This document shows, in pieces, positions 1,369 through 8,053 of a stretch of 39,494 nucleotides of DNA. This DNA comes from a virus. Taxonomy: Duplodnaviria > Heunggongvirae > Uroviricota > Caudoviricetes. Position numbers and translations under genes: made by a program. The notes under the pieces are model-generated. The model did no database searches, was not told where the DNA came from, and was given only the letters and a program-made list of their open reading frames with translations. The stretch spans positions 1 to 39,494 of IMG/VR virus record IMGVR_UViG_2711768073_000020. One strand, written 5' to 3'. Numbering within the stretch: the first letter of the stretch is position 1; each line of letters opens with the position of its first letter.

Positions 1369-1444
1369 GCCGATATAGCTCAGTTGGTAGAGCAGCGCAT
1401 TCGTAATGCGAAGGTCGTAGGTTCGACTCCTATTATCGGCACCA
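1369..1444 (+). tRNA. thrW: tRNA-Thr (anticodon CGT)
   Basis: 76-nt sequence GCCGATATAGCTCAGTTGGTAGAGCAGCGCATTCGTAATGCGAAGGTCGTAGGTTCGACTCCTATTATCGGCACCA: D-loop AGCTCAGTTGGTAGAGC, anticodon loop TTCGTAA, T-loop GGTTCGACTCC, encoded CCA end. Confidence 0.93.
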
Positions 1445-5423: not shown

Positions 5424-5860
5424 TTTGCTGCTCCTCATCATATCGACCCTGCAAGGCCGATTAGTTTCTCCACAAAACAGAGAAGAACACCTGCGGTAGC
5501 AGCCGCCCGGATGGATTGGGTTATGAGCCCGTCGTCCGGTGATGCTCTTCTCTGTTTTGTAAAAAGGACGGTACCAGCCGGAAGCAAGGGTACAAACTGG
5601 TACCGCCAGGACTACACACAGCATAAAGTTGTGGTGCCGGGTGCCTCCCGGTGCCTGGCGAAGGTTGCACACCAGACGGGTGGGTATCCACAGAAGGTCG
5701 ACTGTCAGCCTCAACCTTAACCCGCGTGCGCTGAGCCGCATTCACCACAACGCTAAGGATTCTCTTTGGTTGAAAATACTTAGCTGTTATGTGCCTGTCT
5801 TTTCACCACTTCAGGCTCGGTGGTATCCTTTTAAGCCCGTATACATAAAAGGAAAATCAA

Positions 5861-6106
5861 ATGACTTTTGATGAAAAAGAACTTGATAATGCAATTAATA
5901 AAATCATCGTAACGTCGCTCTTTTCCTGTCTCAGCGACACTCAGCAGAAACAGTTCTACGAATCGGCTTTCAACATGATCGAGCGTTGTTGTTTCTGCGA
6001 TGCCGACGAGTTACCTGAAAAAATCAGGAAACAGTTGGCTGATGCTCTTCGAGTGCGACTTTCTGACCAATTTTCTGAAATGTGCTCTCCGAATTTGGAC
6101 AAATAG
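5861..6106 (+). CDS. Hypothetical small protein, 81 aa
   Basis: AAGGA RBS 7 nt upstream of ATG; Cys-containing (CCFCDADE); converges on and overlaps a minus-strand ORF. Confidence 0.4.
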   Translation: MTFDEKELDNAINKIIVTSLFSCLSDTQQKQFYESAFNMIERCCFCDADELPEKIRKQLADALRVRLSDQFSEMCSPNLDK

Positions 6107-6299
6107 AAAAAGGCCATTTCCATTCAGGGTCTGATGGAAATACTTCAGCCTGTTCCAAAGCACGGCGTAAAGAGAACACAACTCCAGCCATAATCTGATG
6201 TTTCCCATTGGTCCAGCTATCGCCGCTCTGATCTACAGGGGCGGCTATGTCGTATGACCAAACGACTTCACAGTTATTGTTTAAAATCTGGACTTTCAT
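6024..6299 (-). CDS. Hypothetical protein, first gene of the leftward early operon (91 aa from ATG 6299; 98 aa if from 6320)
   Basis: AGGTG RBS 6 nt before the ATG at 6297-6299; lies downstream of the candidate PL; no arginine-rich N-like motif. Confidence 0.4.
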   Translation of the reverse strand: MKVQILNNNCEVVWSYDIAAPVDQSGDSWTNGKHQIMAGVVFSLRRALEQAEVFPSDPEWKWPFSICPNSESTFQKIGQKVALEEHQPTVS

Positions 6300-6425
6300 T
6301 TCATACACCTGCTTTAACATGAGTGCCTAGTGGCACAACATGACTCAACGAATCATCCTGGACTTCATATGCCCCAGGCGGCTACTTCGTGGGCGTCCTG
6401 CCTGTTCGTTGTTTCGCTTGGGTAC

Positions 6426-6453
6426 ATTATGTATCTCAAAGGTACATTGTCAA
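6426..6453 (-). promoter_or_regulatory. Candidate PL promoter with repressor half-sites (minus strand: TTGACA-16 nt-CATAAT)
   Basis: Minus-strand perfect -35 TTGACA (plus 6448-6453) and -10 CATAAT (plus 6426-6431); two direct copies of AATGTACC overlap the promoter, the same GTAC-core half-site as in OR. Confidence 0.45.
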
Positions 6454-6454
6454 G

Positions 6455-6480
6455 TATAAAAAAACCTGCCGAAGCAGGTT
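6455..6480 (-). terminator. Rho-independent terminator of the cI transcript
   Basis: Minus strand: stem AACCTGC / GCAGGTT (6463-6480) with 4-nt loop, followed by TTTTTTTA; begins 13 nt after the cI stop codon. Confidence 0.6.
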
Positions 6481-6492
6481 CATAAACATTGA

Positions 6493-7167
6493 TTAGGCTT
6501 TGATTTTGTATCTTCTTGGTTTTCCTGAGAAAATCACTGTACCAATTATAGAGCAATTACCGTTGATCTTAATGTAAGGCTCAGGCCAGTTTGGGTTTAA
6601 CGCTTTGAGATAACGCTGTGTCCCATCTTCTATCAACCTTTTGAAGGTGGTTTCGCCTGTATCGTGCATCAATGCAATAACGTCGTCACCGTGGCAGGCA
6701 GGTACTTCAGGATCGACAAAAATCATGTCTCCCGGGCGGTACTCATCAATCATTGAATCACCTATCACCCGCAAGATATAAGTCATTTCCCCACAGGGTA
6801 CAGGGCAGGGATACGTTTCTGCTGTGCTCAAATCAACCTCAGAATATCCAACTTCTTTCCATGCTCCGGCCTGTACCCATGATATGACAGGGACTAATGT
6901 GATTTGTTTATTAGTGATTGAAACATCAGGTTTTTTTGTGATGTTCGTTGTCTGGTGTTCTTGATCGAGCCATCCGACAGGCAGGTCGAAACATTTTTCG
7001 ATGTGTCGTGCCATGCTGTCACCGATATTTTTAGTAGCACCATCTCCCATAAACCTGCTGGTCTGGGTTGGCTCGCGATCAATCATAGTGGCAAAGGAAG
7101 AATTCCCGCCAACACCATCTCTCAGTTTTCTGGCGTTAGACCGCCGGATGTCATGGATTGTTTTCAT
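6493..7167 (-). CDS. cI: CI-type prophage repressor (HTH plus S24 LexA-like peptidase domain), 224 aa
   Basis: C-terminal self-cleavage domain with Ser motif (VIGDSMIDEYRPGDMIFVDP) and a downstream Lys (TTFKRL); divergent from a cro-like gene across an operator-rich 90-bp spacer. Confidence 0.85.
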   Translation of the reverse strand: MKTIHDIRRSNARKLRDGVGGNSSFATMIDREPTQTSRFMGDGATKNIGDSMARHIEKCFDLPVGWLDQEHQTTNITKKPDVSITNKQITLVPVISWVQAGAWKEVGYSEVDLSTAETYPCPVPCGEMTYILRVIGDSMIDEYRPGDMIFVDPEVPACHGDDVIALMHDTGETTFKRLIEDGTQRYLKALNPNWPEPYIKINGNCSIIGTVIFSGKPRRYKIKA

Positions 7168-7182
7168 AACGAAATTAAAACC

Positions 7183-7252
7183 CTTGTACCGTTAAGGTAC
7201 AAGTATCTTGAAGGTTCATTTCAATCATGTAATATGTACACCGGAGGTACAT
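7183..7252. promoter_or_regulatory. OR region: two palindromic operators plus candidate PR (-35 TTGAAG 7208-7213, -10 TAATAT 7230-7235)
   Basis: Perfect palindrome CTTGTACC-GTTAA-GGTACAAG (7183-7203) and ATGTACA-CCGGAG-GTACAT (7234-7252) between divergent cI and cro; GGAGG RBS at 7243-7247 before the cro ATG. Confidence 0.55.
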
Positions 7253-7257
7253 ATTGT

Positions 7258-7458
7258 ATGAAAGCGTATTGGGACTCTTTAACCAAAGAACAGCAGGGCG
7301 AGTTGGCCGGAAAAGTTGGCTCAACACCTGGCTACTTACGGCTGGTTTTCAATGGCTATAAAAAAGCCAGTTTTGTGCTGGCTAAAAAACTTGAGCAATG
7401 CACGTCAGGTGCAATTACGAAATCTGACTTAAGACCGGATATCTATCCGAAAGATTAG
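7258..7458 (+). CDS. cro: Cro-like HTH regulator (YdaS/Cro family), 66 aa
   Basis: MKAYWDSLTKEQQGELAGKVGSTPGYLRLVFNGYKK...; GGAGG RBS; divergent from cI. The 167-aa ORF-track version (from 6955) overlaps the cI promoter region and is rejected. Confidence 0.6.
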   Translation: MKAYWDSLTKEQQGELAGKVGSTPGYLRLVFNGYKKASFVLAKKLEQCTSGAITKSDLRPDIYPKD

Positions 7459-7489
7459 CAGAACACTTTCAATTTTTAACCACAGAACG

Positions 7490-8053
7490 ATGAGGCTAAC
7501 CGTGGGTAAGCATCACTGGAAAATAGAAAAACAGCCTGAGTGGTACGTGAAAGCTGTCAGAAAAACTATCGCGGCGTTGCCGGGTGGTTACGCTGAAGCG
7601 GCTGACTGGCTCGATGTAACAGAAAACGCTTTATTCAACCGCCTTCGTGCAGATGGCGATCAGATTTTCCCGCTGGGATGGGCAATGGTTTTACAGCGTG
7701 CTGGTGGCACTCACTTCATTGCTGATGCTGTGGCGCAGTCTGCAAATGGCGTCTTTGTGTCTCTTCCTGACGTCGAGGATGTGGACAACGCCGATATCAA
7801 CCAACGCCTGCTGGAAGTCATTGAACAGATCGGCAGTTATTCAAAACAGATTCGTTCAGCAATTGAAGACGGTGTAGTGGAACCGCATGAGAAGACAGCA
7901 ATTAACGATGAGCTGTACCTCTCAATTTCGAAGCTGCAGGAGCATGCAGCACTGGTCTACAAAATCTTTTGCGTTTCAGAAAGTAGTGACGCCCGCGAGT
8001 GTGCAGCTCCGGGCGCCGTGGCGTGTCGTGACTGTGGAGAAACTAACGCATGA
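7490..8053 (+). CDS. CII-like phage regulatory protein (YdaT/CII-family position), 187 aa
   Basis: Immediately follows cro; alternative GTG start at 7502 has a better RBS (GAGG); C-terminus has a Cys cluster ([14 protein letters not shown]). Confidence 0.45.

Follow-up and report, generated by a model that had tools for sequence, protein, structure and literature searches.

The question raised by this locus is what a set of GTAC-core repeats on both sides of a repressor gene is there to bind. The repeats lie in a stretch of phage DNA of 39,494 nucleotides (the window, analysed here at its full length), between and beyond two divergent genes that leave a 90 bp intergenic region between them. 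Our study suggests that these repeats are very probably the sites at which the repressor binds in the on/off switch of a prophage, although each of them is named here as a putative site. The reading as a whole, in which a lambdoid genetic switch of the SfV/e14 type is controlled by CI and Cro through five operator sites, is one that we hold with considerable confidence. The two divergent genes are the following.

6493-7167, minus strand: cI-type repressor gene, 224 aa (YmfK/CohE of e14, cI of SfV), identified as an open reading frame with domain matches
7258-7458, plus strand: cro-like gene, 66 aa (YmfT/CroE of e14), matching the phrog_35 transcriptional repressor at 3e-15

The repressor gene is 99% identical at the nucleotide level to ymfK of K-12. 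Its product matches Peptidase_S24 over the full length of the family (1.5e-26) and the C-terminal domain of lambda cI (2e-9), and an alignment of three sequences (the window, Hafnia yong2 and Edwardsiella EPP-1) shows no variation at Ala100-Gly101, Ser138 or Lys176. The profile of the N-terminal domain matches the phage repressor structures 5d50_A (1.4e-5) and 7nkv_A (0.003), as well as repressor PHROGs; no Pfam helix-turn-helix family matched this domain, even at E<=10. By sequence reading we assigned a proposed recognition helix, whose residues T34, Q35, S37 and R38 are invariant in 20 loci. The Cro-like protein is a helix-turn-helix protein with sub-threshold matches to the Pfam families YdaS and HTH_3, and its gene is annotated as cro in SfV. 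It is adjoined by a CP76-type CII-like gene (7490-8053).

The candidate sites were scored in bits with a half-site matrix built only from the sites of relatives, with the window excluded, and this matrix was then scanned over the 39.5-kb window. The predicted operator unit that results is a 19-bp dyad, ATGTAYC-N5-GGTACAT (7+5+7). Between cI and cro, the elements of the right operator region and its two promoters are the following.

7184-7202, no strand: OR3-like putative operator, TTGTACC-GTTAA-GGTACAA, a perfect dyad and the best site of the window (23.7 bits)
7201-7219, no strand: OR2-like weak putative operator, AAGTATC-TTGAA-GGTTCAT, fifth best in the window (9.5 bits)
7234-7252, no strand: OR1-like putative operator, ATGTACA-CCGGA-GGTACAT (21.3 bits), conserved in all relatives
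7243-7247, plus strand: cro Shine-Dalgarno sequence GGAGG, in the right half of OR1, invariant in 24 loci
7208-7235, plus strand: PR, with -35 TTGAAG (7208-7213), a 16-nt spacer and -10 TAATAT (7230-7235)
7174-7202, minus strand: PRM, with -10 TTTAAT (7179..7174), a 17-nt spacer and -35 TTGTAC (7202..7197)

The earlier note on this DNA had described two palindromes between the divergent genes, the second of them overlapping the -10 and start of a candidate PR, and both are where it placed them: the left one (7183-7203, CTTGTACCGTTAAGGTACAAG) is a perfect 8+5+8 palindrome, and the right one (7234-7252, ATGTACACCGGAGGTACAT) is a 6-bp dyad with a 7-nt centre, the dyad extending over the final 2 nt of the PR -10 and over the predicted start. 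Its count of two operators at OR was nevertheless incomplete, for it missed the third, weak site at 7201-7219, which we recovered as a repeat, at 75%, of the 20-mers of OL1 and OR1 (repeat family D1); it also overlooked the cro Shine-Dalgarno sequence inside the right palindrome. OR3 and OR2 abut, with 17 bp from centre to centre, and the next spacing within OR is 33 bp. In relation to the promoters, the OR3-like site spans positions -17 to -35 of PRM and so includes its -35, the OR2-like site overlaps the -35 of PR and has its centre at position -43 of PRM, and the OR1-like site overlaps the edge of the PR -10, the predicted start of PR (about 7240-7244) and the cro Shine-Dalgarno sequence.

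Both promoters match the consensus at only 8 of 12 positions, which is the reason why PR does not appear in a consensus promoter scan. PRM has its start at 7167, on the first base of the cI ATG, so that the cI mRNA is leaderless and lacks a Shine-Dalgarno sequence. This start has been mapped in K-12, where transcription of e14 ymfK begins at the A of its start codon and the leader is 0 nt long (PMC4681348 Table S3), and the K-12 sequence of the PRM region is identical to that of the window. The same K-12 table has no entries near the predicted starts of PR or PL, which is what is expected if both are repressed and does not count as evidence.

On the other side of the repressor gene, the elements of the left operator region are the following.

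6462-6481, minus strand: intrinsic terminator of the cI transcript, with an 8-bp stem, a UUCG loop and a T-run, annotated in SfV and Ayreon
6426-6453, minus strand: PL, with TTGACA (6453..6448), a 16-nt spacer and CATAAT (6431..6426), the best promoter-like site in the region
6429-6447, no strand: OL1 putative operator, ATGTATC-TCAAA-GGTACAT (22.6 bits)
6409-6427, no strand: OL2 putative half-site, with an invariant proximal GGTACAT and a weak distal TTGTTTC (14.4 bits)

A minus-strand promoter with a TTGACA -35 directly after the cI terminator had also been proposed in the earlier note, and PL indeed begins 9 nt past the terminator hairpin (6481..6462). Its description as a perfect-consensus promoter applies only to the -35; over the two hexamers 11 of 12 positions match, the one mismatch being in the -10 (5/6), and the spacer is 16 nt. 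The two copies of AATGTACC reported there are present on the minus strand (6427..6420 and 6447..6440), but they are the right halves of 19-bp sites. The proposed OL/PL pair is supported by OL1, which lies within this 11/12 promoter, filling its spacer together with 3 nt at the beginning of the -10, and which belongs to the strongest class of sites across relatives (median 25 bits); the second site, in turn, is a conserved half-site in most relatives. The proximal half of OL2 lies over the PL -10 and +1, with a predicted start at about 6418-6419, and has a median of 12.6 bits across relatives, whereas the distal half is random (-4.5 bits). OL1 and OL2 are separated by 20 bp from centre to centre.

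Chance occurrence of these dyads was ruled out by comparison with shuffled sequences in two ways. First, the motif search that had been suggested for the prophage counted 25 copies of the hexamer TGTACC in the window, where shuffled sequences have 12.4 +/- 3.3, and 8 of the 25 are located within 6421-7251. Second, the five best sites of the matrix scan (23.7, 22.6, 21.3, 14.4 and 9.5 bits) are all inside the switch, and four of them reach at least 14 bits, where the shuffles have a mean of 0.055 such sites. The scan detected no further operators elsewhere in the prophage: the next best site, at 6785-6803 (8.1 bits), and another at 6198-6216 (5.0 bits) are both in the chance range.

The conservation of the sites was followed in a footprint set of 24 loci from other genera, among them Hafnia, Edwardsiella, Klebsiella, Pantoea, Serratia and Proteus, with repressors that are 61-88% identical. 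In this set the dyads, the PR and PL hexamers (TTGACA and CATAAT in the case of PL) and the 16-nt spacers are kept, while the 5-nt centres of the dyads and the flanks diverge freely. The PR spacer is 16 nt in all 24 loci; the PR -10 reads TAATAT, CATAAT or TATAAT in 22 of them and the -35 reads TTGNNG or TTGNNT in 23. For PRM, a TNTAAT-type hexamer 6-7 nt from the ATG was found in 21 of the 24 loci by script and in 22 by reading, after one locus (L010) had been parsed again. In the OR3 dyad the half-sites are fixed, the centre is free and 22 distinct sequences contain 0 compensatory changes, a pattern that fits a site read by a protein rather than an RNA hairpin.

Three other explanations of the repeats were considered, and the one that survives best is a reduced architecture, in which only OR3, OR1 and OL1 would bind the repressor and control would be by simple repression, with neither OR2-dependent activation nor pairwise cooperativity. 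Under this explanation OR2 and OL2 owe their conservation to promoter elements, which are the -35 region of PR in the first case and the -10 of PL with the initially transcribed region in the second. We regard it as possible, though clearly the less probable account. The 9.5 bits of OR2 are by themselves within the chance range, given that shuffles contain 0.8 sites of at least 8 bits per window; the conserved bases of OR2 include the TTG of the PR -35, with which its conservation is confounded; and the distal half of OL2 is the random one in relatives, as its median indicates. Against this, each of the two halves of OR2 has a positive median score across relatives, and in a Proteus locus (L028) its right half is the full consensus GGTACAT. 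The GGTTCAT of OR2 belongs to no promoter element and is kept in nearly all of the loci listed, the centre of OR2 at -43 of PRM matches the -42 of lambda, and the proximal half of OL2 is an exact consensus placed with respect to the -10 as OR1 is placed at PR.

Far less probable is that, instead of CI and Cro, another regulator binds the dyads, for example LexA of the host or the CII-like product of the gene at 7490-8053. RefSeq labels the repressor as 'LexA family', and the gene of the CII-like activator adjoins cro. The LexA box, however, is CTGT-N8-ACAG, with 8 nt between TGT and ACA, and the corresponding gap in these dyads is 11 nt; CII-type activators, for their part, act at a promoter elsewhere, inside or beyond cro. 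In addition, the dyads accompany this repressor gene in every genus examined, they are found in the 39.5-kb window only at the two promoters that flank it, and T34, Q35, S37 and R38 of the proposed recognition helix do not vary. The weakest explanation, that the left palindrome at 7183-7203 is a minus-strand RNA hairpin or intrinsic terminator and no protein site, has some appearance in its favour, as a terminator scan lists an 8-bp stem and a 5-nt loop followed by GGTTTTAATT, but we rejected it as the least probable of all because there are no compensatory changes: variation among the 22 distinct homologues is one-sided or breaks the pairing, with covariation equal to the shuffled value, four further occurrences of the same half-site have no T-run, the PRM -10 accounts for the T-rich tail and the mapped transcription start is downstream of the palindrome, and genuine RNA elements nearby do show compensation, both in the PL leader and in the cI terminator, whose stem changes in a paired manner among relatives (for example, CCTGC/GCAGG to CCCGC/GCGGG).

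In the preferred reading, that of a CI/Cro switch with five operator sites, a CI dimer most probably binds the 19-bp dyads. Because OR1 reaches from the edge of the PR -10 across the start to the ribosome-binding site of cro, its occupation would block PR, and from their positions in the PL spacer and over the -10 and start, OL1 and the half-site OL2 would keep PL silent in the lysogen. Lambda CI activates PRM from an OR2-type position, and the weak OR2 over the PR -35, centred at -43 from the PRM start, may serve in the same manner, with cooperativity between sites a further possibility. OR3, over the PRM -35 and spacer, would allow CI to regulate its own gene negatively and Cro to shut that gene off; the cI mRNA that PRM yields is leaderless, beginning at the A of its ATG. 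Since the site predicted to be the best, OR3, lies on PRM, which is the reverse of lambda, an occupancy order of the lambda type may not apply. After DNA damage, active RecA would induce CI to cleave itself at Ala100-Gly101, and PR and PL would then fire together.

Beside the operators, and not part of them, we observed a structured RNA in the leader of PL, at about +10 to +76 of the predicted transcript.

6344-6410, minus strand: conserved structured RNA of the PL leader, identified with RNAalifold and a covariance model

That its structure is real is near certain. It comprises three covarying helices, with hairpins enclosed by an outer helix; double changes occur at 9 of the 17 pairs and pairing holds in 94% of cells, a result reached by 0 of 500 shuffles. 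At least 119 viral contigs contain an invariant 23-mer of this RNA. Each genome has a single copy, with no copy after PR, and the RNA holds the same place after cI in SfII, ST64B, mEp460, SPN3UB and ZF40. Its carriers are phages of several unrelated immunity types, with variable cargo genes downstream. We found no Rfam match for it on that strand, either at the gathering threshold or at E<=10, and no match for its core in a full-text literature search. Likewise, the covariance model matched neither the put sites of HK022 nor the putL-like RNA of HK639 nor the PL leader of lambda. On these negative results in Rfam and with the covariance model we rejected its assignment to a known family, and a short resemblance between the lambda PL leader and this RNA (GCAGGACGC) is unsupported by the model.

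It has been reported that put of HK022 is a structured antiterminator RNA just downstream of PL (PMC9378689). HK022 put and the HK639 putL-like RNA are about 65-70 nt long, have two hairpins and are located just after PL in lambdoid phages without N; the same holds here, with about 70 nt of structured RNA that follows PL directly in a lambdoid phage probably devoid of N, but there is no homology to putL or putR and no second copy downstream of PR. We therefore offer only as a speculation, which we consider unlikely as it stands, that this RNA is a new kind of early-operon RNA acting in cis, such as a processive antiterminator of the put type that takes the place of N/nutL in phages of the e14/SfV/SfII/ST64B type; a role in antitermination is guessed only from where the RNA lies. 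As a strongly covarying element common to many N-less lambdoid phages, this RNA may matter more than the operators, whose importance is small.

The operators are of limited importance as a discovery since the switch is already known: it is the e14/SfV immunity module, an ordinary feature that has been annotated before, as K-12 e14 and Shigella phage SfV carry the same switch. Several features of a lambdoid CI/Cro switch are found here, namely divergent genes, a repressor that has a helix-turn-helix domain and an S24 domain, OR dyads over PR and PRM, putative operators at OL/PL and a leaderless cI made from PRM; the near-identical repressor, Cro and operators place it in the e14/SfV immunity group. 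The earlier proposal that this region is the immunity switch of the prophage is thus supported, but the specificity, as judged from these sequences, is that of e14 and SfV and not a new one. The module is present at >=90% identity in 1324 of 5426 complete E. coli genomes, about a quarter of them, K-12 included. We found no footprinting, EMSA or ChIP data on this repressor or on Cro in the literature that could be searched, our search for binding data on YmfK and YmfT turned up only expression-level or list-level mentions, and the operator strings had no match in a full-text search. What our study adds is the explicit consensus, a five-site map tied to PR, PRM and PL, and the cross-genus footprinting; these could guide binding experiments, of which none appears to have been published. 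Homoimmunity is predicted among e14, SfV, SfIV, cdtI and phages of the Stx2c type.

Among known systems, the closest is e14 (ymfK/cohE and ymfT/croE of K-12), which is 99% identical at the nucleotide level over 6400-7270 and base-for-base identical in the cI terminator, PL, all five operator sites, PR and PRM. The two diverge about 40 nt into the PL leader, with ymfJ as cargo in e14 and orf33 here, and e14 is a defective 15-kb element at icd, whereas the module of the window adjoins a tRNA-Thr(CGT) gene. In K-12 expression compendia, the leftward genes ymfJ, ymfH, xisE and intE fall together with the rightward genes ymfT, ymfL, ymfM and ymfN in one co-regulated module, which also contains the SOS genes sulA and recN (PMC12132413, PMC10602906), so that the two arms of e14 are induced jointly with SOS genes. 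SfV (U82619) is 98.2% identical over 6300-7500, and nothing of substance differs in the switch. Its GenBank record has annotations for cI, cro and the terminator of cI, and its 'putative operator region' corresponds exactly to 7184-7252; PL and OL are unannotated there, and the same leftward promoter is annotated in the record of Ayreon. The relatives of SfV include SfIV, cdtI, Stx2c phages, Ayreon, 2H10 and PhiR29/PhiR49. It has been reported that SfIV and SfV have 100% identical cI and Cro proteins and that SfV, SfIV and SfII have no homologues of N, cII and cIII (PMC3851460).

With lambda itself, the locus shares the divergent cI and cro genes, a homologous S24 C-terminal domain, three OR sites over PR and PRM, a leaderless cI from PRM and operators at PL, and the centre of OR2 is 42 bp from the cI start codon in lambda and 43 bp here. 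The lambda operators, however, are 17 bp long and unrelated in sequence to the 19-bp (7+5+7) dyads described here, and the spacing of the OR sites is 23 and 24 bp in lambda against 17 and 33 bp in this locus. The site predicted to be strongest is the one proximal to PRM, the reverse of the lambda affinity order, and OR1 lies over the +1 and the cro Shine-Dalgarno sequence instead of upstream of the start. At the left operator, lambda has three sites and this locus one dyad and a half-site, at a distance between OL and OR of about 0.8 kb, compared with 2.3 kb in lambda. Lambda relies on N and nut for antitermination, this locus probably has neither, and SfV, SfIV and SfII lack an N homologue by report (PMC3851460). 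Finally, unlike in lambda, PL abuts the cI terminator, with no rexAB between them.

The repeat unit of the immunity switch is, judged from the sequence, a 19-bp dyad, (A/T)TGTAYC-N5-GRTACA(A/T), because two families returned by the repeat finder align accordingly: D1, with three 20-mers (6428-6447, 7200-7219 and 7233-7252), and D5, in which 6409-6426 is aligned with 7184-7201. The earlier note had placed two palindromes between cI and cro and a matching set at a leftward promoter, and our study confirms these observations. The first palindrome (7183-7203) is perfect in the window, CTTGTACC-GTTAA-GGTACAAG; the second (7234-7252) is present as ATGTACACCGGAGGTACAT; and one copy of AATGTACC is set within the leftward promoter and another just past it. 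A search for TGTACC found 25 occurrences in the window (expectation 12.4 +/- 3.3), 8 of them inside 6421-7251. The window was then scanned with a half-site matrix made solely from the relatives' sites, which avoids circularity, and the five putative operators are its top five matches among all 39,494 bases:

7184-7202, OR3, 23.7 bits
6429-6447, OL1, 22.6 bits
7234-7252, OR1, 21.3 bits
6409-6427, OL2, 14.4 bits
7201-7219, OR2, 9.5 bits

Dinucleotide shuffles gave 0.055 sites of at least 14 bits per window and a mean best score of 8.9 bits, and the matrix scan found no further operators above chance in the rest of the prophage in the window. The terminator and promoters associated with these sites are the following:

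6481..6462, minus strand, cI terminator hairpin, ending 8 nt before the TTGACA of PL
6453..6448 and 6431..6426, minus strand, PL: -35 TTGACA, 16-nt spacer, -10 CATAAT
7208-7213 and 7230-7235, plus strand, PR: -35 TTGAAG, 16 nt, -10 TAATAT
7179..7174, minus strand, PRM -10, a TNTAAT-type hexamer

The leftward promoter had been described as a perfect consensus, which holds for its TTGACA -35 after the cI terminator but not for the promoter overall, an 11/12 match; it is the best promoter-like site within 5700-7600 in the promoter scan. OL1 occupies its spacer and reaches three bases into its -10; OL2 begins at the final two bases of that hexamer, matching the placement of OR1 at PR. PR, with a match of just 8/12, is absent from the consensus promoter scan list; its 16-nt spacer is invariant in all 24 loci compared, and its -10 is TAATAT, CATAAT or TATAAT in 22 of them. 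Its start is predicted at about 7240-7244, and the Shine-Dalgarno sequence of cro, GGAGG (7243-7247), falls within OR1. On the other side, the ATG of cI has a TNTAAT-type hexamer at a distance of 6-7 nt in 21 of the 24 loci by script (22 by manual reading, one mis-parse in L010 being corrected), and cI has no Shine-Dalgarno sequence across the loci compared; this arrangement predicts a leaderless cI mRNA from PRM. The RefSeq names of the repressor and cro genes are ymfK and ymfT, and differential RNA-seq in K-12 places the ymfK transcription start on the first base of its ATG codon, the A (leader length 0 nt), ymfK being one of five leaderless E. coli mRNAs listed (PMC4681348). Relative to the PRM start, OR3 extends from -17 to -35 and takes in the -35 TTGTAC, while OR2 and OR1 are centred at -43 and -76; in lambda, the annotated OR2 has its centre 42 bp away from the start codon of cI.

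The phylogenetic footprint included two diverged phage copies, Hafnia yong2 (74%) and Edwardsiella EPP-1 (69%), and 21 more genomic loci from Klebsiella, Leclercia, Pantoea, Kluyvera, Rahnella, Serratia, Symbiopectobacterium, Proteus and others, whose encoded repressors are 61-88% identical. The half-sites of OR3, OR1 and OL1 are essentially fixed across relatives and their five central bases are free to vary. OR2 is a weak dyad (its halves have medians of 4 and 5 bits), its right half being a full consensus in the Proteus locus. The proximal half of OL2 is of consensus strength (median 12.6 bits) and the distal half is random (median -4.5 bits), which makes OL2 a half-site in most relatives. 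A reduced architecture of three sites only is plausible, although we consider it the less probable arrangement. As for the protein that recognizes the dyads, LexA is an unlikely candidate because TGT and ACA are separated by 11 nt, rather than by the 8 nt of a LexA site. Recognition by the CII-like protein is also unlikely, since the dyads are confined to the promoters on either side of the repressor gene and accompany it. An RNA hairpin at OR3 was rejected: 22 distinct sequences of the dyad contain 0 compensatory changes, and the level of covariation is that of the shuffles. The cI terminator stem, by contrast, has compensated changes among relatives. Because the sequence of OR3 is kept and its pairing is not, OR3 reads as a protein-binding site.

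The repressor (224 aa) contains a complete S24 domain, a homologue of the C-terminal domain of lambda cI; Ala100-Gly101, Ser138 and Lys176 are invariant in three aligned sequences. Pfam returns no HTH family for the repressor; a profile built on its first 80 residues has hits to 5d50, the repressor of Salmonella phage SPC32H (1.4e-5), and to 7nkv, the N-terminal domain of a phage CI (0.003). The annotated repressor CDS looks misbounded in EPP-1 (1578-2312, start 66 nt too far upstream, crossing the operator region) and in yong2 (1583-2140, start 117 nt downstream, with the N-terminal 39 residues lost); the homologous ATG gives full-length alignments in both. Cro is a 66-aa HTH protein, and downstream of its gene there is a gene for a 187-aa CII-like activator of the CP76 / phrog_101 type (7490-8053, plus strand), even though SfV-type phages have been stated to have no cII (PMC3851460, the SfIV paper).

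With these components, repressor dimers at OR1 and OR2 would block PR, and OL1 with the OL2 half-site would block PL; OR2 occupancy may stimulate PRM, by analogy with lambda, and OR3 would serve autorepression and Cro-mediated shut-off. RecA-stimulated self-cleavage of the repressor would release both promoters; in expression compendia, both e14 arms are induced together with sulA and recN, two SOS genes (PMC12132413, PMC10602906). The order of operator occupancy is uncertain: OR3 rather than OR1 is predicted to be the best site, and OR2 lies directly next to it, with 17 bp between their centres, so a lambda-like hierarchy should not be assumed.

The predicted PL transcript carries near its start a conserved structured RNA, followed by the first PL gene; these are listed here with the ORF that converges on that gene and with a tRNA gene:

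6410..6344, minus strand, PL-leader RNA, about +10 to +76 of the transcript, ~65 nt
6024-6320, minus strand, first gene after PL, 98 aa, phrog_3195, no function annotated
5861-6106, plus strand, ORF converging on that gene with an 83-nt overlap, 81 aa, phrog_3311
1369-1444, plus strand, tRNA-Thr(CGT) gene

The nucleotide sequence of the leader is conserved in many loci with differing downstream genes, and its predicted fold (RNAalifold) is an outer helix around two hairpins. Double-sided changes occur in 9 of 17 pairs and 94% of cells pair, values reached by 0 of 500 shuffles; in slid controls the paired share of cells is 14-42%. At least 119 viral contigs carry an invariant 23-mer of the RNA, one occurrence apiece, and among them the 5-bp hairpin stem has at least 10 different complementary versions. 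Roughly half of the distinct sequences upstream contain a promoter of at least 9/12 ending 20-31 nt before the core. A covariance model recovers the RNA from e14, SfII, ST64B, mEp460, mEp237, SPN3UB and ZF40. In five of the six phages, with differing immunity types, it lies about 100-190 nt past the repressor gene; in the sixth, mEp237, it comes after two hypothetical genes and before kil. The RNA has no match in Rfam and no second copy in the window, and its model does not match HK022 put, the HK639 putL-like RNA or the lambda PL leader. From position alone, a put-like role is conceivable, because SfV-type phages are reported to be without N (PMC3851460). The first PL gene differs in almost every relative's locus, which marks its position as a cargo slot directly behind the conserved leader. 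Further down the PL operon, the ORF-free gap between orf33 and the phrog_204 gene contains a full-length, sub-threshold match to the STnc100 sRNA family (RF02076; 5558-5773, minus strand; 39.5 bits against a gathering score of 47; E = 1.5e-6). The tRNA gene is probably the thrW attachment site of SfV-type phages, in which case the window begins in host DNA and continues into the prophage.

Both this kind of system and its very sequence are already known as an annotated module. Positions 6300-7500 are 98.2% identical to Shigella phage SfV and 96-99% identical to SfIV, cdtI, twelve Stx2c phages, Ayreon, 2H10 and PhiR29/PhiR49. In the GenBank record of SfV, cI, cro and the cI terminator are annotated together with a 'putative operator region' (26377-26445); this region maps gap-free onto window 7184-7252, running precisely from one palindrome to the other. 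The Ayreon record annotates the same leftward promoter. Literature searches, whose reach did not include the SfV and e14 papers likeliest to treat the operators, found no published binding experiment for these operators; the explicit consensus and five-site map may go somewhat beyond the existing record. Among 5426 complete E. coli genomes, 1324 carry the immunity module at an identity of at least 90%, some of them in as many as 3 copies; one of these instances is K-12 e14, which is 99% identical and has the same terminator, PL, five sites, PR and PRM as the window. Homoimmunity is therefore to be expected between e14 and the SfV, SfIV, cdtI and Stx2c-type phages. Nonetheless, the host recorded for phage Ayreon (96% identical) is 'E. 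coli K12'.
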